This document shows, piece after piece, positions 1 to 41,494 of a stretch of 41,494 bases of DNA. This DNA is from a virus, in UHGV virus genome UHGV-1357485, one strand, 5' to 3'. Made by a program: the position numbers and the translations under genes. The notes under the pieces were generated by a model. It saw only the letters and a program-made list of their open reading frames with translations, did not search any database and was not told where the DNA came from. Each line of letters starts with the position of its first letter. The stretch's first letter is position 1.

Positions 1-1058
1 CCGCACGTTATCTGATTTCCTTCGTAAATGAAGTCGATAGCGCGGTACACATCGTCATACAGGCCTGTTTTCAACACACACCATTGCGGACCATTGGCGC
101 TTGAAGATGCGTCGTACACAAGTACATGGCGCGGAAGATGGATAATCAGCAACTCATGAGCATCAAATCGCAAAGATTCCATCACGCCATCAGCCAGTTC
201 ATCAGCAGTGTAGGAGCGTAGTATTTTCTCAATGCTCGCGCTGGCGATTGGTGATACCTGACCGGAGCCGATGATGTACACAGACGGCGCACCTGTTGCC
301 GGATTGCTGATAAACGCATAGGAATCAGCAAACGGCGTTTTGCAGTAAGTTCCGGCGATGCCTTTTTGCACCATCAGCGATGGCTGTGCGACATACAACG
401 CGGCACCAACAGTGGTTGCACCAGTGAGGGAAAAATATTCAATCGTCGATGAACCAAAGCAGACGATGAAATCTCGCCATGTGCCGATACCGATTATTCC
501 GTCAGGCTGTGATTCTGCCCGATATTGTGCGCTGTAGCGGTCAGGATGCGATTCGTCTTCAAGGTCAGTGATAAACCATGAATCGGTGCCGTCTTTTGAC
601 CACGCATAACGCCCACGTAATCGCGTAATGTCGCGGACTGAGCCTAACTCATACTGCGTGAATCCGCTGTCTGCAGGCCAGTTTGAGACGGTTTTAACCG
701 TGCCATCATAGCGATACTCGACCAGTTGACCATTAACGCCTACAGCCTGAGATGTCCGACCATGAGCCATTGATACGCGACCACTTCCGGAAACATCACC
801 GACTTCGCTTTCGCCCTTATACAGCTTGCCCCCACACACGCGATAAACAGCACTCTGCGCCATGTTGTACTCGACGCCGCGCGATACACCGTTCACATCA
901 GAGCGTTTGGCAATGCCCGGGAATGAGCGAAGATATCCGCTGCTGTTAAGGATTTCTTTGGGTGTAGCCAACATATTCACTGGCAGATAGTCGATATAGT
1001 CAGCGTTTCTAAAGTCTTTGCCGACACCTTTCATAAGCGGAAGTTGCTGAATAGGCAT
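1..1058 (-). CDS. P22 gp10-like head-completion/tail-hub protein, 5' portion (about 352 codons); gene continues at window end
   Basis: Minus-strand ORF, ATG at 1058 overlapping the gp4 stop, open to position 1 with 2 nt of a split codon left; sits in the P22 5-4-10-26 gene order. Confidence 0.7.
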   Translation of the reverse strand, partial: MPIQQLPLMKGVGKDFRNADYIDYLPVNMLATPKEILNSSGYLRSFPGIAKRSDVNGVSRGVEYNMAQSAVYRVCGGKLYKGESEVGDVSGSGRVSMAHGRTSQAVGVNGQLVEYRYDGTVKTVSNWPADSGFTQYELGSVRDITRLRGRYAWSKDGTDSWFITDLEDESHPDRYSAQYRAESQPDGIIGIGTWRDFIVCFGSSTIEYFSLTGATTVGAALYVAQPSLMVQKGIAGTYCKTPFADSYAFISNPATGAPSVYIIGSGQVSPIASASIEKILRSYTADELADGVMESLRFDAHELLIIHLPRHVLVYDASSSANGPQWCVLKTGLYDDVYRAIDFIYEGNQITC

Positions 1059-1828: not shown

Positions 1829-3124
1829 TCACGCGGTCTGGTTAGGCAGACCAACACCAATTGCCTCTGGCCGTACAGCACATGCTGAATACCACACAGC
1901 AATACGGCACTTACCAGACAGAGTATTGATATCACCCTGCGTTGCGAAGATGCCGTTAACACCAATACCAGGAATGCTGAAGGAAGACGTTTTCATGCCA
2001 GCAAACAGTTCATGGGTTACCGGAATCGGCTGAGACAGCAGGCGGATTGAGTCATCAGCCCAGAACACGTTAGCGGTGGTTGTTGCCACGTTCAGAACGT
2101 TTACCGTAGTGGAATCAGCAAGAGAGGTGTTTACGTTAGCGTAAGCCTTCTCTTCTTTTGTCAGTGAAGAGTCATCAAGCGCAATCGGCTTCGGCGTGAT
2201 TTCGATGTGAGTACTATCGATCACACGGGTGATTGAGAAAGTCGCATCATCAGTCAGCACATTCTTCGCCATCTGAGACAGGAATTTCACACCAGTGAAG
2301 CTGATTTTGTCGCCGCGCTTAAATCCGGTGGTGGAGGATACGGTCACCGTTGCAACACGGTTGTCGACGTTCTCTTTGTTACCATCGGTATCAAGGGTGT
2401 ATGCCTGCGGCTTAAACTTCTGCGCACCAGAAACTGTTACACCAGTAGCGGTTGACTTGGTAACAGCCGGAAGTTTCGGTGAGCGAAGAATTTCATCAAA
2501 GCCAGCAATCTGACGCTGAATGGTACCGTTGCGATACGCTTCTTCAGGAACGCGCCCGAAGATGTCACCATCTACCAGGTTGCGGCCTGCTTTGCGGTAA
2601 TCGTCAGGGTTCAGGAAGTAACTGATGCCCATATCGCGGTTTAGCTCACGGGAGAACATCAGGCGCTCTGCATCAGACACAAAATCCCAGCCAGACAGGC
2701 CAGTAGATGGACCAATTGCGCGGGTATCGTGAACAACAAGTGAGCCCATTTCGGTTGCCTGTTTGGCAATTGCTGACTCAATGTTATTCGCCAGTTTTTT
2801 GGCGGATGCCTGGATGCGGCGACGGTAAGAACGCTCATCACGCAGGTCATCTGCACGAAGCTCGAAGAAATCGTTATCCGGATCACCCATGTTGCATTTC
2901 ACGGAGAGTTCCAGAATCCCAGTAGCTTTGCCAGTTAAATCCCAGCCAGTCTGAGTTGGCGCTTCCTGCTCAACAGGCATCCACACGGTGTTGCTTGAAC
3001 GCTGCATGGATTCTGCCGGAGGGGTGTATTTTGTCACTTTGGACGCCATTGGCGTCAGGTTCTGGACGGTTTCGATGATTTCATCCAGAGCATACGTGAC
3101 CAGTTGACCTTCATTTAATGCCAT
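1829..3124 (-). CDS. major capsid (coat) protein, P22 gp5-like (431 aa)
   Basis: Begins MALNEGQ... and matches recalled P22 coat protein along its length; 430-431 aa. Confidence 0.9.
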
Positions 3125-6214: not shown

Positions 6215-7714
6215 TTAAGTTCTCCGTGCGATGGGCCTGATTGGGGCTGGTATCTTTTTCTCTTTTGGTTTTTTGATGTCGCGCATCATTTTGGCGAAGC
6301 GGCGCATCATGTATGCATAGCGAACGGCGGATAGCACGTCGTCGTTAAGCTTGACGATCTTCCCGTTTTCATCACGGTGATAGAGGCGGAACTCCTCAAA
6401 GAATGGCTCACAGGTGTTGAATACTTTGAAGCGACCATCAAGCATCATGTCGCGCAATTCAGTGATTCCAGGCTCCACAGCGTTACCGCCATCAGGCCAT
6501 GTCGCATGCTCCTGCAACATCATAAAACCAGCGTCCGCGTACTGCCCTTTGAGCTGCTCACCGCCGCCCTTCTCATGCTGGTTTCCGTCATGAGGCCATG
6601 CGGTTGGCACTTTATGCGCCCATGATTTAACAGCTCCCCATGCCTGAACAGCTGTTTTTTCTTTCGCCTTCCACACGCGTGAAACGTAGATTGTGTCTGC
6701 GTCCTTATCCCACCAAAGCTGAACCTGCGCCTGTGGGTGATCCCATCCGAAATCCATCCCACCAATTACGTAGAAGTGATCAGGACACTCGAACGGCTGA
6801 CACTTAATAGTCTCTTCCGGTATCTGGAAGATTCGACCGCTACCCATCGTAGGAATACCGCGAGCACGCGCCTCTCTCTCATGCTCGGGATAGGATGCGA
6901 TGATTTGCTCTTTCTGCTCGTCGGTGTAGTGCTCAGCGTCATAGATGGTCATGTTGACCACTTTCTGCGACTTGCTGGGATTCTTCAGGAACTTGGTAAC
7001 AACGTCAGACATCCCCATCAGCGGGGTAAACGTCAGAATTGAGAATTGCCCGTATTTGTTGGTACGGGTAAGGCCTTCGCCATAAATGCTGTATGGTGGC
7101 TCTTCGTCAAACCACACGCCGTGGATTGTGTCACCCTGCCAGCGAGCGCGACCTTGCGAGTATGGTTTGAAGTAGCAGATTGAAATGCCATCTTCAACGC
7201 CATCAGCCGTGTGATGCTTAACCAGAAGATGATCAACAAGGTTCGGAAAGAAAGGAGACTTCTTCCAGCTAATGATGTCTTCTTTAGGTATGGAACCGTA
7301 GCCTGGCTCATCATTCTCTTCGATACGACCACACAGGATGCGTTGAGTCGTTTTGGTTACAGTCTCGTTTGTCTCGCCGCCAATCCAGAAGACAACAGGC
7401 TCATAGAAACGCTTACCTTTCCACTCCCCACCATATTTACCATCAGCCGGATAGCCTTTTGTTCCCGGATAACGCCCGGTAAGGTGAAACGCGACTTCAG
7501 CAGCCCCAGTAAATGACTTACCAAGCTGGTTACCAGCCATAAAACAGCGCTCTGGATAGTCATGCCCGGCATCGATGAACTCACGCTGTTTGCTGTATGG
7601 CGTAAATTCATATAGCAGGTGTGTGTTCCGGTAGTTCTCTTCTTCTTCGAGTAGCTCGAGCAACTCGATTTGCTCTTCGTCGCTCAGGTTATCAAGAATC
7701 GCGTCCAGTTCCAC
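6215..7714 (-). CDS. terminase large subunit, P22 gp2-like (499 aa)
   Basis: 499 aa as in P22 gp2; immediately upstream of portal; overlaps small terminase. Confidence 0.85.
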
Positions 7715-24559: not shown

Positions 24560-24682
24560 ATGTCTTGTCCAAAATGCGGTTCTGGAAATATTGCAAAAGA
24601 AAAAACAATGCGTGGATGGTCTGGTGATTATGTGTGCTGCGATTGCGGATACAACGACTCGGTAATGACTCCAACTTATTGA
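24560..24682 (+). pseudogene. zinc-ribbon small protein gene truncated by IS1 insertion
   Basis: GGAGG RBS, CPKCG...CCDCG; reading frame enters IS1 at 24661; original 3' end (about 59 aa total) resumes after the IS at 25438-25517. Confidence 0.55.
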
Positions 24683-25179
24683 TAGTGTTTTATGTTCAGA
24701 TAATGCCCGATGACTTTGTCATGCAGCTCCACCGATTTTGAGAACGACAGCGACTTCCGTCCCAGCCGTGCCAGGTGCTGCCTCAGATTCAGGTTATGCC
24801 GCTCAATTCGCTGCGTATATCGCTTGCTGATTACGTGCAGCTTTCCCTTCAGGCGGGATTCATACAGCGGCCAGCCATCCGTCATCCATATCACCACGTC
24901 AAAGGGTGACAGCAGGCTCATAAGACGCCCCAGCGTCGCCATAGTGCGTTCACCGAATACGTGCGCAACAACCGTCTTCCGGAGACTGTCATACGCGTAA
25001 AACAGCCAGCGCTGGCGCGATTTAGCCCCGACATAGCCCCACTGTTCGTCCATTTCCGCGCAGACGATGACGTCACTGCCCGGCTGTATGCGCGAGGTTA
25101 CCGACTGCGGCCTGAGTTTTTTAAGTGACGTAAAATCGTGTTGAGGCCAACGCCCATAATGCGGGCAGTTGCCCGGCAT
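24676..25179 (-). CDS. insB: IS1 transposase InsB (167 aa)
   Basis: Matches recalled IS1 InsB. Confidence 0.9.
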
Positions 25180-26287: not shown

Positions 26288-26536
26288 AATAGCGGGTAAA
26301 ATATTTCTCACATCTAAAAAACATCATTCCAATCAATCCCCTGCCGCGCCAAGTAGATGTCTGCAGGGGACACCATTTATCAGTTCGCCACCATCCGTGC
26401 CAGTCCGCAAAATCCCCTGAATATCAAGCCTTCCGTATATTCACGGTTCGTCATGGTTCGCGTCAGATCGTTGACAGCCGCACACCATGACGGGTAAAAA
26501 GTGGATAAAATAATTTTACCCACCGGATTTTTACCC
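26281..26536. repeat. GGGTAAAA direct and inverted repeats around the att core (candidate arm-type Int/Xis binding sites)
   Basis: At least three direct GGGTAAAA copies and two inverted TTTTACCC copies in the xis-int interval. Confidence 0.4.
26361..26375 (+). other. attP core candidate: 15-nt match to the 3' end of tRNA-Arg(CCU) argW (CTGCAGGGGACACCA)
   Basis: Identity to the recalled argW 3' terminus, about 160 bp upstream of an IntS-like integrase in the same orientation. Confidence 0.5.
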
Positions 26537-27694
26537 ATGCTCACCGTTAAGCAGATTGAAGCAGCAAAGCCGAAAGAAAAACCATACCGCCTTCTCGATG
26601 GTAATGGCCTGTACCTTTATGTCCCTGTGTCAGGGAAAAAGGTATGGCAGCTTCGCTACAAGATTGACGGTAAGGAGAAAATCCTGACCGTCGGAAAATA
26701 TCCGCTTATGACTTTGCAGGAGGCAAGGGATAAAGCATGGACCGCGAGGAAAGACATCTCGGTTGGCATCGATCCAGTAAAAGCGAAAAAGGCTTCGTCT
26801 AACAACAATTCCTTTAGCGCCATTTACAAGGAATGGTACGAGCACAAGAAGCAAGTCTGGTCAGTAGGCTATGCAAATGAACTTGCAAAAATGTTTGATG
26901 ACGACATTTTACCCATCATCGGCGGCCTTGAAATTCAGGATATTGAGCCGATGCAACTTCTTGAAGTAATCCGCAGATTTGAAGATCGCGGTGCAATGGA
27001 GCGAGCCAACAAAGCCCGCAGAAGATGCGGCGAGGTTTTCCGTTACGCTATTGTCACTGGTAGGGCTAAATATAACCCGGCACCTGACCTTGCTGACGCC
27101 ATGAAGGGATACCGCAAGAAAAACTTCCCGTTTCTTCCTGCAGACCAGATCCCGGCATTTAACAAAGCACTGGCAACATTTTCAGGAAGCATCGTATCGC
27201 TCATTGCGACCAAAGTTTTACGCTACACAGCCCTCAGAACAAAAGAGCTTCGTTCCATGCTATGGAAGAACGTCGATTTTGAAAACAGGATTATCACCAT
27301 CGACGCCAATGTGATGAAGGGACGCAAAATTCATGTGGTTCCTATGTCAGACCAGGTAGTTGAACTTCTCACTACGCTAAGCTCAATCACTAAACCAGTG
27401 TCAGAGTTTGTTTTTGCCGGGCGCAACGATAAGAAGAAGCCAATCTGCGAGAACGCGGTATTACTTGTGATCAAACAAATCGGCTATGAGGGTCTGGAAA
27501 GCGGTCACGGATTCAGGCATGAATTCAGCACGATTATGAACGAGAACGAATGGCCTGCTGATGCTATTGAAGTGCAACTGGCACATGCCAACGGCGGTTC
27601 TGTGCGTGGAATTTACAACCACGCTCAGTATCTTGATAAGCGCAGAGAAATGATGCACTGGTGGGCGGACTGGCTTGATGGGAAGGTGGAGTAG
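26537..27694 (+). CDS. int: tyrosine integrase, P4/IntS-type (385 aa from ATG 26537)
   Basis: N-terminal arm-binding region MLTVKQIEAAKPKEKPYRLLDGNGLYL...; C-terminal catalytic ...HGFRH...; resembles recalled E. coli IntS. Confidence 0.9.
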   Translation: MLTVKQIEAAKPKEKPYRLLDGNGLYLYVPVSGKKVWQLRYKIDGKEKILTVGKYPLMTLQEARDKAWTARKDISVGIDPVKAKKASSNNNSFSAIYKEWYEHKKQVWSVGYANELAKMFDDDILPIIGGLEIQDIEPMQLLEVIRRFEDRGAMERANKARRRCGEVFRYAIVTGRAKYNPAPDLADAMKGYRKKNFPFLPADQIPAFNKALATFSGSIVSLIATKVLRYTALRTKELRSMLWKNVDFENRIITIDANVMKGRKIHVVPMSDQVVELLTTLSSITKPVSEFVFAGRNDKKKPICENAVLLVIKQIGYEGLESGHGFRHEFSTIMNENEWPADAIEVQLAHANGGSVRGIYNHAQYLDKRREMMHWWADWLDGKVE

Positions 27695-27867
27695 TTATTA
27701 CAACGATTCTTATAAAAAAGAAAAGCCTTGCACATATAGCAAAGCTTTTCACTTCTCGGGATTTCTTACACCAAGAAACCCTCAACAATAACAAAATGCA
27801 ATTTTATATGTTAACTACATATGCATTTCATTAAAACCAATCATAAATGCTTATCATACTTTAATTG

Positions 27868-28995
27868 CTATAATTGATTGCCTTCTATTTTTTCAACTCG
27901 AGTGGTTGAAACATCATTCTTAAATCCACTCCACCATTTTCTTAGCTTATTGTTTATTGGCTTTTCAAAAAACAAATACATCATTATTGATATAAATAAT
28001 GAAGAAAACAGAGCCATTACTATAAATTTAATTACACTTATAGCACCAAGACCAGAAACATTAAAGAACTTGCTCAATGTACTGATTACTATAGTGTGGA
28101 CCAAGTAAAATGAAAAAGAAGCATCACCTAAAAGTATCATAACTTTATTTGATATTATTTTTGAAATAATACCACCATTAAACGAAAACACTAATATTGA
28201 AAAGGCCATTGATGGTATAAAAAGCGCATCATACTGTAATCCATTGCCATTTTGACTTTTTGCCACCATATAGACAGACATTAGGATAAAGACTACAGAT
28301 GATATTTCAGCAAATGATAGAACTAAATATGACGGCTTTGACTTAAACTCAAAATATAGTTTACACAATATAATACCGATTAAAAAGTCAGGCAACCTAT
28401 TAAAAGGGTTTATGTAAAAGAACCAGTGAGAGAACGCATCACTAATTTCCCCATAGCTTGCCATGTAAATAATATTAATTAAAATTAACGCAGCAAACAA
28501 AGCGAGCATTCTTTTTCGCGCAAAAATTATAAAACAAAAAGAAACATAAAAGAACATTTCTACAGAAATGCTCCAGGATACTGCATTGAATGAGAAATAG
28601 TCTTCCTTATCTACTGAGTAAGACTGAATTAATAGTGCATTTTTTATTATAGACAATATATTTGGTGAGAATCCACCACCTAATATTGAGTGTCCAACTA
28701 TAAACACAGTCAAGCAAAGCAAATGTACTGGATATATTCTAAATACTCGATGCGCAAGAAAATCAACAAAACTTCCGTTGCCATTACGCAATGAAATAGT
28801 AAAACTATATGTTAATATAAACCCAGATAAAATAAAAAAGAAAGTAACACCAGAATACCCAAGTTTAAAATATTCAAATGATGAAGCAAAATCTCTATTA
28901 CTTGAATTTTGTATTACCGCCATGTGGCTAAAAAACACCCCAAGGGCTGCAAATGCCCTTAGGGATGTCAGGCTATTTAGTCTTTCTGCGCGCAT
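27868..28995 (-). CDS. acyltransferase-3 family membrane protein, probable O-antigen acetyltransferase (lysogenic conversion)
   Basis: N-terminal ...RLNSLTSLRAFAALGVFFSHM... and about ten TM segments; AT-rich; between tailspike and att/int where Sf6 carries oac and P22 carries gtrABC. Confidence 0.75.
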   Translation of the reverse strand: MRAERLNSLTSLRAFAALGVFFSHMAVIQNSSNRDFASSFEYFKLGYSGVTFFFILSGFILTYSFTISLRNGNGSFVDFLAHRVFRIYPVHLLCLTVFIVGHSILGGGFSPNILSIIKNALLIQSYSVDKEDYFSFNAVSWSISVEMFFYVSFCFIIFARKRMLALFAALILINIIYMASYGEISDAFSHWFFYINPFNRLPDFLIGIILCKLYFEFKSKPSYLVLSFAEISSVVFILMSVYMVAKSQNGNGLQYDALFIPSMAFSILVFSFNGGIISKIISNKVMILLGDASFSFYLVHTIVISTLSKFFNVSGLGAISVIKFIVMALFSSLFISIMMYLFFEKPINNKLRKWWSGFKNDVSTTRVEKIEGNQL

Positions 28996-29104
28996 GATAC
29001 ACCTATGTTTTAATGCACAAAAATGCAACAAAAGATTGATGATACCATAAGCAACAGAAAAATCACATGATCACTTACTCACGTTCAACTTGTACCATCA
29101 GAAT

Positions 29105-31645
29105 CTAAATTATCTGCGTCACTGACAATGCTTTCTTTAACACCACTCCTCCGCTCGTTGTTGCTCCCTTTGAGTACTCAAAGGAGATATTGGCTGAAAT
29201 GCCAAGATTCTCATCAGGACAATACCACCAAATTCCAATAGGGAGCACAGATGCCTTGTCATAACTGACAGTGCGATCATACGACGACTGGTACCCATTG
29301 AAGTCATACCATTTAAACCCAGTAATTGCGTTGCCAGCAATCATGCAATCAGTGCTCATAACTACACCAAACGCATTCTCAATATTAGATGCAACTAATA
29401 TGGCACTCATTGCGATATTCCTAAAGCTACATGACGTCACAGAGTATCCATTTGTATTTGCGTTTATAACTCCTATTTCTCCAAGGAAAGTCGTTGTCCT
29501 TATAGATCCATTAAAAAAAGATGTTGATTTTGTCCCTCTAAGACACACTCCCACATCAGACTCAAACGCGCTATCAGATATATCGATATACGTTGAACTT
29601 ACTGATGGATTATTCTTATAAAAGCTAACTCCGTAATTTAGATTATTGAAATTACAACTATTAACCCTTACAGATGCTACTCTTGCATCATATAAATAAA
29701 GGCCTGCCGTCATCCCTTCAAGGTGTGTGTCGTTTAATGGAAATACTGCATTATCCCCAGCCTCGTTAGGATCATTCATTAATGTTTTAGGGTTTGTGAA
29801 TTTATTTTTAATTATCGATGTAAACTCATCACAAAAAAAGTCATGTGATGCGCTATTAATTACCTTAAACCCTGAGAATCCGAATGGCTTCCCACCAGAG
29901 ATTATTGCCAAACAAAATGCTTGCGCCCCACCGCGTATTCTATATTGATTTGATTTTGATTCAAATTTAAAATTGCCTTGTAATGTTGAGTTGGTGATAC
30001 AACTAAAAGAGTTACCTATGTATGATACGTTATTATTATATGATGACGTTATGCTATAGCTGTTTACTTTATTTCCAGATATAAGAACATTATCACAAAA
30101 AAATTGAGCACATATCCCTGATTTTGATGTAACAACATTATCAGACATTATGCTATGAATAACCATTGAGTGAAAAGTTATGCCCCAATGACCATGGCTA
30201 TACGAAGTTGATATTAATGGATCGTTTATTATATTTCCAGTGCAGTTAACATAACAAACTTGCCTATATACTCCTATTGTTGAATCATTCAAACCAAGAG
30301 TTGAGCAAATGTTATCTTTAATAGAGCAAACAGAACTTGATGTGGCATAGCTAAACATAGCTTCTGGGATATTCCCTGTTAATCTATTCCTCTCGAATCT
30401 ACCAGAATAACAATAATATCGCATCTCAACATGGACATTATGGAAGTTACAACCAATCACTTCTGGCTCGATCTGAGACAAAAGCATGATTCTTCTTAGA
30501 GCATTGCTACTGCTTTTCATCGTCACACCATCTTTAATTTTGAATGGCGTAAGGTTACCTGTTGGGAACCCAAATTTCGCAGTCCCAGCCACCTGATTTA
30601 CCACCAGAGGTTGCGCCAAAATAGCCTTATTGGTAGTTGTATGACCTATAATTTTTGTTACCTGAATGAACTGAGATTGGTATCCATTCAAGTTAAGTGT
30701 AAGTGCCAACCCATCTATGCTGTCAGCAGGTGTGGTGGATTTTTCCGCTTCATCAATACAGAACGGATATCCATTATCAATGACGACATATTGCCCTGTG
30801 CGATCTACACCATCGAGATATACCTCAGAGTGCCCTGCAGATGCAGGCTGAGAAAAAACTGTCATAGTTGGGAAGTCATATGGCTCAACCCTAAAATGAT
30901 TACCCAATGTTATTGTGCCACGACCATATATACCTTTTGCCCCGGCTGGCGCTGTATAATCTGTTGTGGTGGTAAGGTCAGCTCCTGTAATGTTTACTTC
31001 TTCTCCGAAGTTAAACGCTGCCGTCAGTGCCTGCTCGGTTGTTACAAACCTATTGGTGTAGTTAAGGATATGGTTTAAATCATATCCGTTAAGATTCCCT
31101 ACAGACTTCCAGTTTGAATCTGGTGAACTACCAGGAGGGACAGTTAATGGAACTGACAGATCACCAGTATAAATGTAATACCACCCAGTTGATGAATAGA
31201 ATAGTGCCTGATATTTACTTGTTATCGTTGCACCAGAAGCAAAGGATACATTTTGCAGGCGTTTATAAACATTAAATCTAAAATTTTCATTAGCGTATAA
31301 AGAAAACTGATCTGGGTCGTACCCTAAAACATTAGGGAAGTAGAACTGCTGCATGCCGTAAGAATCGTATACCGCCATAGAATGGCCTTTCACAGTTACG
31401 AATTTGGCAATCTGCCCGTTATATACAGGATACCCGCCAGAGTTAATGATGATTGGCTGTGCAACAGGAACGTGAGAACCATCTTCGTTCTCCACATAAA
31501 CCTGAATCTGGTTTTCAGGATTTACTGGGTCAGTATCAATTTTACCGATATAAATTTTGCCATTGGCTACGGCTTTAAAAGAACGCGCCATAGTGAAGAG
31601 TTGCGAAGGCATCGACACGATCACATTGGCTGTAATGTCTGTCAT
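29105..31645 (-). CDS. tailspike protein: P22 gp9-like head-binding N-terminus plus divergent beta-helix receptor-binding/depolymerase region (846 aa)
   Basis: N-terminus [13 protein letters not shown]...[23 protein letters not shown]... resembles P22 tailspike; distal two-thirds AT-rich, Asn/Ser/Cys-rich. Confidence 0.85.
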
Positions 31646-39429: not shown

Positions 39430-39885
39430 CTATCTCCCGTGATTCAGGAAGTCGATTAGTTCTTCGCGTGTGGCGCTGTAAAAAGTCACGTCATCCACGC
39501 CTTTAAAGTATTTCTTGATGGTTCCGACACGCTTAAGGCCAATCATTGCGCAGTAAATCTGCCCGTGGCGGAATTTGCGTGCGGCGAACGATGTGACGCA
39601 CTGAACGGTGGTGTTAGTCAGAATGTATCGCCAGAACGCCAGCCCTATTTCTTTGCTGAAGCCGCGAATCTCTGGCAGGTACATGGCGTGGCAATCGAAT
39701 GTCAGCGGCTGAATCTCCTGATAGTAAACAATGCCGCCAAACTGACCGTGCACGTTCACCTCAAAGTAACGGCAATCAGGTTTGTAGTCGTATCCATCGC
39801 CGTTGTTGCTCCCGGCAATAATGTCAGGGTGATTTCCGACTGCTTCTATCAGGTCGATGTTTCGCGTTGGTTTGAATGTAATCAT
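39430..39885 (-). CDS. virion-associated protein at the P22 gene 14 position (151 aa)
   Basis: Position between tail needle and gp7-like genes; identity uncertain. Confidence 0.45.
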   Translation of the reverse strand: MITFKPTRNIDLIEAVGNHPDIIAGSNNGDGYDYKPDCRYFEVNVHGQFGGIVYYQEIQPLTFDCHAMYLPEIRGFSKEIGLAFWRYILTNTTVQCVTSFAARKFRHGQIYCAMIGLKRVGTIKKYFKGVDDVTFYSATREELIDFLNHGR

Positions 39886-40586
39886 CAGTCAATCAGCCCA
39901 TGTAATCTAAGTGCCGTTTCAAGCGCCAGAATACGCTGCCGCGCCTGCTGCAAACCTGTAGCGAGAGTTGCGACTTCGGATTGTGTGTACGTAGTGCCGA
40001 CAGTGTATGACTGGTTAGCGTTGAATGAGCCGAGGAGTGCCGTTCCGGTTGCTGCTGTCCATCCTGTCTGACGAGCACCGATAACCTTGGTGCCGCCGAC
40101 TGAATAGGATGTTGTTACGTTGAGGGGGGATGCCAGCGATTGTGTTGCTGTGGCTGTTTTCGATACGTAATCGTCCTGCAATGCAGAAATATTTCCTTCA
40201 GCCTCCGTCACTCTACCATCGAGAGCACTGACATCAGCCTGCAAGGTGACTATTTCACCTTCAGCCGTGGTTAGTCTGACATCCAGCGACGCGATTGCAT
40301 TGGTATTTGCAGTAATACGGATTTCATGGTCGTCTACGTCGATGCGGAGCTGACGAATTCTTTCTTCGTGATCGACCAGAATCACATCCTGCTCATCGTT
40401 CCTGACTTGTGCGTCATAAGCGCCCTGTCCGGCCTCGTTGGCCTTGTTCGCCACGTTACCAACATCAGTACCCTGTGCGATAACGTACAGCAGATATGAC
40501 TGCGAGAAGATATTGCGTGGAAGGATTGATGTATCGAGCCGCGTCGCCTGAACAATAACAGGGGTGTTGAGATTCGAATCAGCCAT
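39885..40586 (-). CDS. tail needle protein, P22 gp26-like (233 aa)
   Basis: [25 protein letters not shown]... then trimeric coiled-coil heptads; GGAGG RBS; same length as P22 gp26. Confidence 0.8.
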
Positions 40587-41112
40587 TAACATGCCTCCAT
40601 GCCTTGCCATTTACAATTCTACTAACCTTTGAATTGTGAATTCCAAATAATTTAGCAACTTCACACTGAGGAAATCCATTGGCAACCATTTCTTTTATCT
40701 TTATGACATCATCATTAGATATTTTAGAATTACCATTCCTTTCTCCTTTTACATTACCTCTCGACTCCAATCCATATGAGTGTGAGATATTTCCTGATGG
40801 AGTAACCCATTCAAGATTTAGATAGTTATTATTATATTTATCACCATCTATATGATTTACCTGTAACCCTTCAGCAAATCCACCAACAAAGTGAGATGCA
40901 ACAAGCTTATGTATTAGTATGTTCTTTTTTACGCCATCCTTATATAAACACACATACTTATATCCATTTACGTTATGATTATGCTTCAGCCACCTACCCT
41001 TAATAAGACGTCCCCTCAAATTTACTCTTGAATGCGAGTAAACTCTACCATCATTAGTGATGGCGTACAGTCCTTCATATCCTTCGATATCTTTTGCGTT
41101 TTCACTTAACAT
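40579..41112 (-). CDS. HNH homing endonuclease (177 aa)
   Basis: N-terminal ...[15 protein letters not shown]... (NUMOD4-like), HNH region ...[10 protein letters not shown]..., C-terminal HTH-like; AT-rich; AAGGAG RBS; inserted between gp10 and gp26. Confidence 0.75.
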
Positions 41113-41133
41113 ATCTACTCCTTGAGTTTCGAT

Positions 41134-41494
41134 TTATGTTACACGAATAGAAAGGCCTGATAATGTGACAGGACCTTTTGCAATAACCCTGAATTTAAAT
41201 CCAATGAGGCGTCTAACTCGACCAACCTTTCGCCATAAAACGCGATTGTCATATACAAATGGTTTTTGTAATACGACCATTTGCTCACGACCGTAACTAA
41301 TTCCATCTGTAGTGGCTGATATAAATATTTTATCTATTCTATCACACACGCCGCCCGATGTTTCTAATTCAAGGTCATTTATTAAAGCGTTATCTGCCTT
41401 TATTAGAGGGGAATATAAAATATGCTCTTGTTGTTTTTCGTATTGTGAAGATATATCGAATTGCAATTTCCCGGTCACCGATTCCAGTTTGTCG
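41134..41494 (-). CDS. P22 gp10-like protein, 3' portion (C-terminal about 120 aa); ORF open to window end
   Basis: Minus-strand ORF running off the window end with 1 nt of a split codon; joins in frame with positions 2-1 to give 1,419 nt (472 codons plus stop). Confidence 0.7.
   Translation of the reverse strand, partial: DKLESVTGKLQFDISSQYEKQQEHILYSPLIKADNALINDLELETSGGVCDRIDKIFISATTDGISYGREQMVVLQKPFVYDNRVLWRKVGRVRRLIGFKFRVIAKGPVTLSGLSIRVT

Follow-up and report, generated by a model that had tools for sequence, protein, structure and literature searches.

A probable free-standing homing endonuclease gene of the I-HmuI type, linked to an alternative gp10 end, at the gp10-gp26 junction of a P22-like temperate phage

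Homing endonuclease genes of phages adjoin essential genes and lie at recombination boundaries, a pattern described under the name 'HEG islands', for homing endonuclease gene (HEG) islands (Barth, Dunham & Seed 2023, PMC10448857). The phage T4 gene mobE mobilizes the DNA that flanks it (PMC2790892), and in Skunavirus the I-HmuI-like HNH genes group according to their insertion sites and display marker exclusion (PMC12724721). I-HmuI itself, from Bacillus phage SPO1 (PDB 1U3E), is encoded inside a group I intron of the DNA polymerase gene. Here we describe an I-HmuI-like gene in UHGV virus genome UHGV-1357485, a stretch of 41,494 nucleotides (nt) that is called the window below and was analysed at its full length. 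The gene (40579..41112, minus strand, ATG start) encodes an HNH protein of 177 amino acids (aa) and, unlike that of I-HmuI, is free-standing between two virion genes, gp10 and the tail needle gene gp26, of a P22-like (Lederbergvirus-type) temperate phage. It is probably a functional homing endonuclease gene, and the cassette to which it belongs has probably spread by homing with co-conversion of the adjoining 3' end of gp10.

The HNH protein resembles I-HmuI over its full length. NUMOD4 at aa 7-57 (PF07463, E = 5.1e-13, 49.5 bits against a cut-off of 23.4) and HNH_3 at aa 67-108 (PF13392, E = 5.1e-10, 39.3 bits against 24.8), the two domains named in a first-pass annotation of the window, both exceed their Pfam cut-offs; a match to phrog_59, 'HNH endonuclease', reaches 2e-49, and a weak HTH_23 match (0.0016) stays under the Pfam cut-off. 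A phmmer search of all PDB sequences returned one real relative, I-HmuI (1U3E, E = 8.4e-21), in an alignment of aa 7-174 with residues 4-163 that runs through the helix-turn-helix (HTH) of I-HmuI to residue 163. An AlphaFold2 model built on 69 homologues (predicted local distance difference test score, pLDDT, 92.5) contains three helices at aa 133-167 (pLDDT 96-98) and a predicted HTH at about aa 133-168. Foldseek gave 1u3e as the sole significant fold match in the PDB (E = 1.3e-9, probability 1.00, 179 aligned columns), with HTH proteins as secondary matches; the template modelling score to 1u3e, 0.53, is a modest value in keeping with the model of an elongated protein of several domains that was built in the absence of DNA. 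In the fold alignment the two proteins are 31% identical and share the order of their modules, namely a beta-rich NUMOD4 region, an HNH beta-beta-alpha metal motif, a helical linker and an HTH, and this I-HmuI-type succession of NUMOD4, HNH_3 and C-terminal HTH is complete in the 177-aa protein.

His75 of I-HmuI is the general base of the reaction, and Asp74 and Asn96 are metal ligands. H87 of the window protein aligns with H75 and N108 with N96; the two enzymes differ at the remaining position, which is Asp74 in I-HmuI and Asn86 in the window protein. Across alignments of 69-122 homologues, N86, H87, N99 and N108 are invariant or near-invariant, and H111 occurs in 117 of the 122. The first-pass annotation had called the protein an HNH endonuclease, a call that a lack of intact catalytic residues would have undermined, and we found the family-invariant catalytic residues all in place, H87, N99 and N108 together with the nearly invariant H111. 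Comparison with the Citrobacter orthologue yielded a ratio of non-synonymous to synonymous divergence (dN/dS) of 0.13 at a dS of 0.47, which indicates that the coding sequence is maintained by purifying selection.

The window represents the entire circular genome of a P22-like phage, cut open midway through gp10, and may be an excised prophage. The gp10 gene (472 aa) is read in frame across the window ends, on the minus strand, from 1058..1 into 41494..41134, and stops with TAA at 41136..41134. Its 5' part (nt 1-1058; 1..1058) is of the usual E. coli backbone type, at 93-94% identity to HNH-less phages, whereas its last ~106 codons (41134..41454, minus strand) form an alternative allele with a low guanine-plus-cytosine (GC) content, here called gp10-C', which is linked to the HNH gene. 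The gp10 product is assigned to the PHROG 'head closure Hc3', and its C-terminal part matches Pfam Phage_stabilise (1e-52), a match that is retained although the gp10 end is the gp10-C' allele. A spacer of 21 nt (ATCGAAACTCAAGGAGTAGAT; 41113..41133, minus strand) follows, in which we read the ribosome-binding site, with AAGGAG at 41123..41118, 5 nt 5' of the HNH ATG. At its far end the HNH gene runs into gp26 (39885..40586, minus strand; phrog_1219 'tail needle protein', 5.6e-126). The true gp26 start is the ATG at 40586..40584 (MADSNL...), and the HNH stop TGA (40581..40579) overlaps gp26 codons 2-3 within ATGGCTGA (40586..40579), so that the first 8 nt of gp26 double as the last residues and stop of the HNH protein.

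Both gp10 and gp26 are complete, and the HNH gene sits between them with a GC content of 0.35, lower than that of the whole genome (0.46) and of the neighbouring structural genes (about 0.5). The low-GC block reaches from about nt 1099 of gp10 (window ~41454) to the gp26 start, where it stops sharply. The layout given in the first-pass annotation, a low-GC gene between gp10 and gp26 with its own ribosome-binding site and a stop inside the first gp26 codons, is thereby confirmed. Because no promoter or terminator was predicted for the HNH gene on the minus (coding) strand, it is probably co-transcribed with the late operon; RNA structure masking the ribosome-binding site did not exceed chance (z = -1.5), and the window holds no HNH paralogues. 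Two other kinds of mobile element were considered and rejected. A transposable element does not fit, as no direct or inverted repeats of at least 12 nt are present in 40300-41494, and an intron- or intein-encoded gene does not fit either, since the gene lies between the gp10 stop and the gp26 start and Rfam reports no group I or II intron at E<=1. The description of the gene as free-standing, lying between two complete genes without intron RNA and without flanking repeats, is therefore borne out.

In most relatives this site is empty. In phages Dewey, UPF_BP1 and HK620 the end of gp10 runs into gp26, with the stop of the one overlapping the start of the other, which bears out the adjacency of the two genes that the first-pass annotation had given for P22. 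Similarity to HNH-less phages restarts at window position 40588, at TAATGGCTGA, which contains the ancestral gp10 stop, and the empty site reads GAGTAATGGCTGA in Dewey, in UPF_BP1 and in most of the ~751 genomes with a P22-like gp10-gp26 junction that we found among 5426 complete E. coli genomes. In most of these ~751 genomes gp10 abuts gp26, and only ~52 carry the NUMOD4-type HNH gene: 36 have the window type, 32 of them at >=99% nucleotide identity, and 16 have another allele, known from Escherichia phage HZ41. This phage is the only one of 74 matching phage records with a gene in the same place, and its allele encodes 181 aa with 50% protein identity to the window protein. The first-pass annotation would have failed had all relatives carried the gene with a phage-like composition, and the distribution is of the opposite kind.

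RefSeq already contains the identical protein, with an automatically assigned name only. WP_000947776.1, 'NUMOD4 domain-containing protein' (E. coli O111:H- 11128 and others), is encoded by a gene with 100% nucleotide identity to that of the window, and its protein cluster, named 'NUMOD4 motif-containing HNH endonuclease', has 88 member sequences. In the literature searched we found no description of its site, cassette structure or activity, and no paper on an HNH gene at the gp10-gp26 junction; the epsilon34 paper reports an unrelated HNH fusion in the early region, and the Sf6 and BASEL papers mention homing endonucleases in passing only. A contig scan with the single protein, covering one genome per species, produced only an irrelevant archaeal match of 40% identity.

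We found that the mobile unit is larger than the nuclease gene. Window and HNH-less Dewey are 93-94% identical over gp10 nt 1-1098 and 54-59% identical over nt 1099-1419, and protein identity falls from 98.6% before gp10-C' to 63% within it. The GC content of gp10-C' is 0.31-0.37 against 0.50 for the rest of gp10, and the allele ends in ...LSIRVT where the ordinary allele ends in ...IRIE. All six same-site carriers examined have gp10-C', namely the window, HZ41, E. coli 2017.18.04CC, Citrobacter sp. C411, a contig from SRR32774198 and Providencia rettgeri, with 82-96% aa identity of the allele in the five others, and it is absent from all three genomes examined that lack a NUMOD4-type HNH gene here (Dewey and UPF_BP1, which are empty, and A1_136, which has an HNH-AP2 gene). 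Every listed E. coli genome with gp10-C' has a NUMOD4 gene under or beside the match, save for copies interrupted by insertion sequences (IS), and an artificial 'deleted' junction used as query, in which gp10-C' is joined directly to gp26 as after loss of the nuclease, had no counterpart among the matches listed. The left breakpoint lies at about nt 1099 in the window and in Citrobacter and at about nt 1131 in HZ41 and 2017.18.04CC, and the bounds of the unit are the conserved gp10 nt ~1040-1100 and the conserved 5' end of gp26. From these comparisons the mobile unit is a cassette of ~0.9 kb, in which the last ~320-345 nt of gp10 are followed by the 21-nt spacer and the HNH gene. The earlier view of an inserted HNH gene thus stands as far as the gene is concerned but not in taking the 534-bp gene alone as the insert, since the last ~320 nt of gp10 are included in the carriers examined.

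Since Providencia gp10 is itself low in GC (0.41-0.48 overall) and its end is closer to gp10-C' (71-75% aa identity) than to the common E. coli end (60-62%), the cassette probably came from a P22-like lineage of lower GC, resembling that of Providencia. In the Providencia rettgeri prophage (L011, 2180..3973) gp10 is called at 597 aa, with an extra internal segment of ~125 aa compared with the 472-aa protein. Insertion sequences were seen within the cassette of two further strains: an IS3-family element lies between gp10 and a 5'-truncated HNH gene in E. coli ETEC6333 (L006, 1181..2409), and IS1A lies within the matched cassette region in strain M160133 (H309). As some cassettes are interrupted in this manner, decay of the nuclease gene does occur in prophages.

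The cassette has moved between backbones. Compared with the prophage of E. coli O111:H- 11128 (L013), the window shows not a single mismatch from gp10 nt 1075 to gp26 nt 20, as read from the list of mismatches, a stretch of 912 bp (gp10-coordinate 1075-1986; window 40567..41478, minus strand). Upstream of this block gp10 is 93.7-94.8% identical, and downstream the 5' part of gp26 is 74.4% identical. A block that is 100% identical between clearly diverged flanks shows that these 912 bp were recently transferred horizontally. HZ41 and 2017.18.04CC present the same picture for the other allele, with 99.4-100% identity in the cassette and 94% and 77% in the flanks, and the two E. coli HNH alleles, at 50% aa identity, lie in flanks that are 93-95% identical. 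Between window and Citrobacter the HNH body is 93% identical, whereas gp10 is at 72-73%, gp10-C' at 79% and the 5' end of gp26 at ~59%. The HNH gene of Citrobacter sp. C411 (L007, 4001..4546) is itself mosaic: identity to the window is 70% over its first ~120 nt, which are similar to the HZ41/Providencia allele, and 93% over the remaining ~400 nt. Given this difference between the 5' 120 nt and the body, the nuclease gene can be exchanged within the cassette too.

At the gp10-gp26 site itself the HNH lineage is old. Protein identity of the same-site orthologues to the window protein is 87% in Citrobacter, 60% in SRR32774198, 50% in HZ41 and 44% in Providencia, and all of them keep the 21-nt spacer and the overlap with gp26. 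The spacer sequence ATCGAAAC-N3-AGGAGTAGAT is conserved in HZ41, E. coli 2017.18.04CC, Citrobacter and the SRR32774198 contig, and the Providencia spacer is recognisably related. The gene had been described as recently acquired; since same-site orthologues at 44-87% identity exist in Citrobacter, Providencia and a metagenomic phage, this holds for its spread among E. coli prophages only and not for its presence at the site.

The same junction has also received other nuclease genes. E. coli A1_136 carries an unrelated 164-aa gene with HNH_3 and AP2-like domains here (L005, 2864..3358), combined with an ordinary gp10 end and with GAGTAAT at both ends of the insert, and an HNH-AP2 gene is apparently also present at the junction in strain Nord1 (H275). 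Three different HNH genes are thus found at gp10-gp26, with related genes at two other junctions: paralogous NUMOD4-HNH genes lie at gp4-gp10 in UPF_BP1 and K56-43-un and at Q-holin in phage N7, where the paralogue (L009, 2501..3022; 172 aa, 45% identity) stands between the Q antiterminator and holin genes. In K56-43-un two NUMOD4-HNH genes (L014, 270..995 and 2383..2916) bracket gp10; the one at gp4-gp10 has next to it a duplicated 5' fragment of gp10, annotated as a pseudogene, and the copy at gp10-gp26 is of the window type. From this occupancy, gp10-gp26 looks like a hotspot for different nucleases. A further ~16 E. coli genomes match only the spacer and the first ~140 nt of the HZ41-type HNH gene, at 86-87% nucleotide identity (rows H347-H360). 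These partial matches fall in genes annotated 'HNH endonuclease', at least one of which lies ~1.5 kb upstream of the gp10 3' end and thus probably at the gp4-gp10 junction, and a shared 5' HNH module may recombine between insertion sites.

These features resemble what has been described for SegF/SegG and MobE of T4 and for the I-HmuI-like genes of Skunavirus, which are likewise intergenic, lie beside an essential gene and occur in some relatives but not in others; donor sequence from their flanks travels with them, and marker exclusion would be expected here as well (PMC2790892; PMC2988022; PMC12724721). The clustering of the Skunavirus genes by insertion site has its parallel in the orthologues at 44-87% identity at the window site. 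The present locus differs in belonging to a temperate P22-like phage or prophage instead of a virulent phage, and in that the co-transferred flank is a strongly diverged allele of a structural-protein domain (~55% nt and 63% aa identity). With HEG islands the locus shares the position of the nuclease gene exactly at a boundary of high and low nucleotide identity, beside an essential gene, and the bracketing of gp10 by two NUMOD4-HNH genes in K56-43-un, but the exchanged block is <1 kb here compared with islands of >10 kb.

The mechanism that we propose would proceed as follows. The HNH gene would be expressed late, from the structural operon, and its product would nick or cut the HNH-less allele of a co-resident P22-like genome, which could belong to a superinfecting phage or to a further prophage. 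The break would fall in or near the gp10 3' end or the gp10-gp26 junction. Recombinational repair off the HNH-carrying genome would then copy the nuclease gene into the recipient. Because the gp10 3' ends of donor and recipient are only ~55% identical and homology resumes upstream at about nt 1100, the repair tract would have to reach this next conserved sequence, and gp10-C' would be obligatorily co-converted. The HNH-carrying allele would be immune, its site being split by the insertion or replaced by gp10-C', and the outcome would be a localized marker exclusion of the competitor's C-terminal gp10 allele. Such a course follows the scheme of 'intronless homing' and marker exclusion established for the Seg and Mob enzymes of T4, for which the I-HmuI-like genes of Skunavirus have recently provided support (PMC2790892; PMC2988022; PMC12724721), and it agrees with the location of nuclease genes at recombination boundaries (PMC10448857).

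Several points weigh against this account. Cleavage, homing and marker exclusion are predictions from sequence comparison, and the signature of co-conversion is a correlation of linkage only. The breaks in identity prove recombination and not the nuclease as its cause, and the unusually conserved flanks would also favour a passive exchange. In Citrobacter and SRR32774198, gp10-C' has diverged in step with the backbone (76-79% versus 66-75%), which would fit a long vertical residence as well as homing. Furthermore, N86 stands where I-HmuI has D74, a replacement that could affect the catalytic chemistry. Asn is, however, found at this position in 121 of the 122 aligned relatives, I-HmuI being the only one with Asp; as the family norm, N86 is probably a subfamily trait and not a lesion.

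The main rival explanation builds on the same points. In a passive exchange, gp10-C' and the HNH gene would form a mosaic module that is swapped by ordinary homologous recombination at conserved flanks, with the nuclease as a passenger that no longer drives its own spread here, or never did. P22-like genomes are indeed mosaic (PMC11990801), the block is bounded by the very conserved gp10 nt ~1040-1100 and the N-terminal coding region of gp26, and the divergence of gp10-C' tracks the backbone in the two lineages named above. A mere passenger would, however, hardly be expected to remain under purifying selection with every invariant catalytic residue kept, or to be 93% identical in its body between E. 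coli and Citrobacter next to flanks of 59-79%. Likewise, three HNH genes at one junction and relatives at two more are typical of nuclease-targeted sites and not of random mosaic joints. We therefore consider passive exchange doubtful, though it deserves to be weighed seriously.

The two further explanations, a packaging helper and a dead enzyme, are unlikely. A nuclease that serves the phage without homing, by assisting DNA packaging as the terminase-adjacent HNH proteins of HK97-like phages do or by degrading host or competitor DNA, would fit a conserved gene that belongs to the late structural operon, has a strong ribosome-binding site and lacks a separate promoter. The gene is nevertheless dispensable, being absent in >90% of relatives with the same assembly genes; the open reading frame of the large terminase (6215..7714) is not adjacent but ~7 kb away round the circular genome; and the architecture is that of an I-HmuI-type nickase with two DNA-binding modules (NUMOD4 and HTH) in contrast to a short packaging HNH protein, all of which makes such a role very improbable. 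Least probable of all is an inactive relic or DNA-binding protein with an intact reading frame and lost cleavage, for which Asn86 opposite Asp74 of I-HmuI and the precedent of defunct homing endonucleases such as I-TevIII (PMC2790892) could be cited, but against which stand the same Asn throughout the family, the retained H87, N99, N108 and H111, the dN/dS of 0.13 and the recent movement of the cassette between backbones.

Beyond the homing endonuclease reading itself, which we favour, a broader interpretation can be put forward more tentatively. The gp10-gp26 junction might be a contested homing hotspot at which the nuclease would work as a natural gene drive, favouring another C-terminal domain in an essential protein of the virion. 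The HNH gene and a cleavage-resistant gp10-C', apparently of Providencia-like origin, would act as one unit that overwrites the resident gp10 end in phages of E. coli and Citrobacter; this unit would exist as two anciently diverged alleles (50% aa identity) in near-identical flanks, would compete with the unrelated HNH-AP2 gene and could combine with a second HNH gene at gp4-gp10. We regard this extended scenario as possible, and as less probable than the homing reading itself.

Elsewhere in the window, the stretch with the lowest GC of the genome (0.30-0.38) spans 27600..30600 (minus strand). It contains an Acyl_transf_3 acyltransferase gene (27868..29031) that may serve to modify the O-antigen, as well as the distal part of the tailspike gene (29105..31645), whose product has a P22 head-binding domain at its N-terminus, and it is adjoined by the integrase gene (26501..27694, plus strand). 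An open reading frame for an IS1 transposase (24676..25179, minus strand; Pfam DDE_Tnp_IS1, 5.9e-78) coincides with a local GC peak of ~0.53. Because an IS1 copy thus appears to be inserted in the phage genome, the sequence is suggested to stem from a resident prophage.

Homing is a well-established concept in T4, SPO1, Skunavirus and ICP1, and our finding extends this known phenomenon and opens no new one; its most useful additions are the structure of the cassette and the multi-nuclease hotspot. If the proposed mechanism is true, the locus would allow intronless homing to be studied cleanly and with ease in a temperate phage, as P22-like phages offer excellent genetics and the target lies in two well-studied genes of the tail machine. 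The cassette can furthermore serve as a sharp marker by which to follow recombination between E. coli prophages, among them those of O111 Shiga toxin-producing E. coli and porcine enterotoxigenic E. coli. Under the proposed mechanism, a selfish nuclease would force phages of different hosts to exchange part of an essential structural gene, which would help to explain the mosaic boundaries in the P22 assembly operon.

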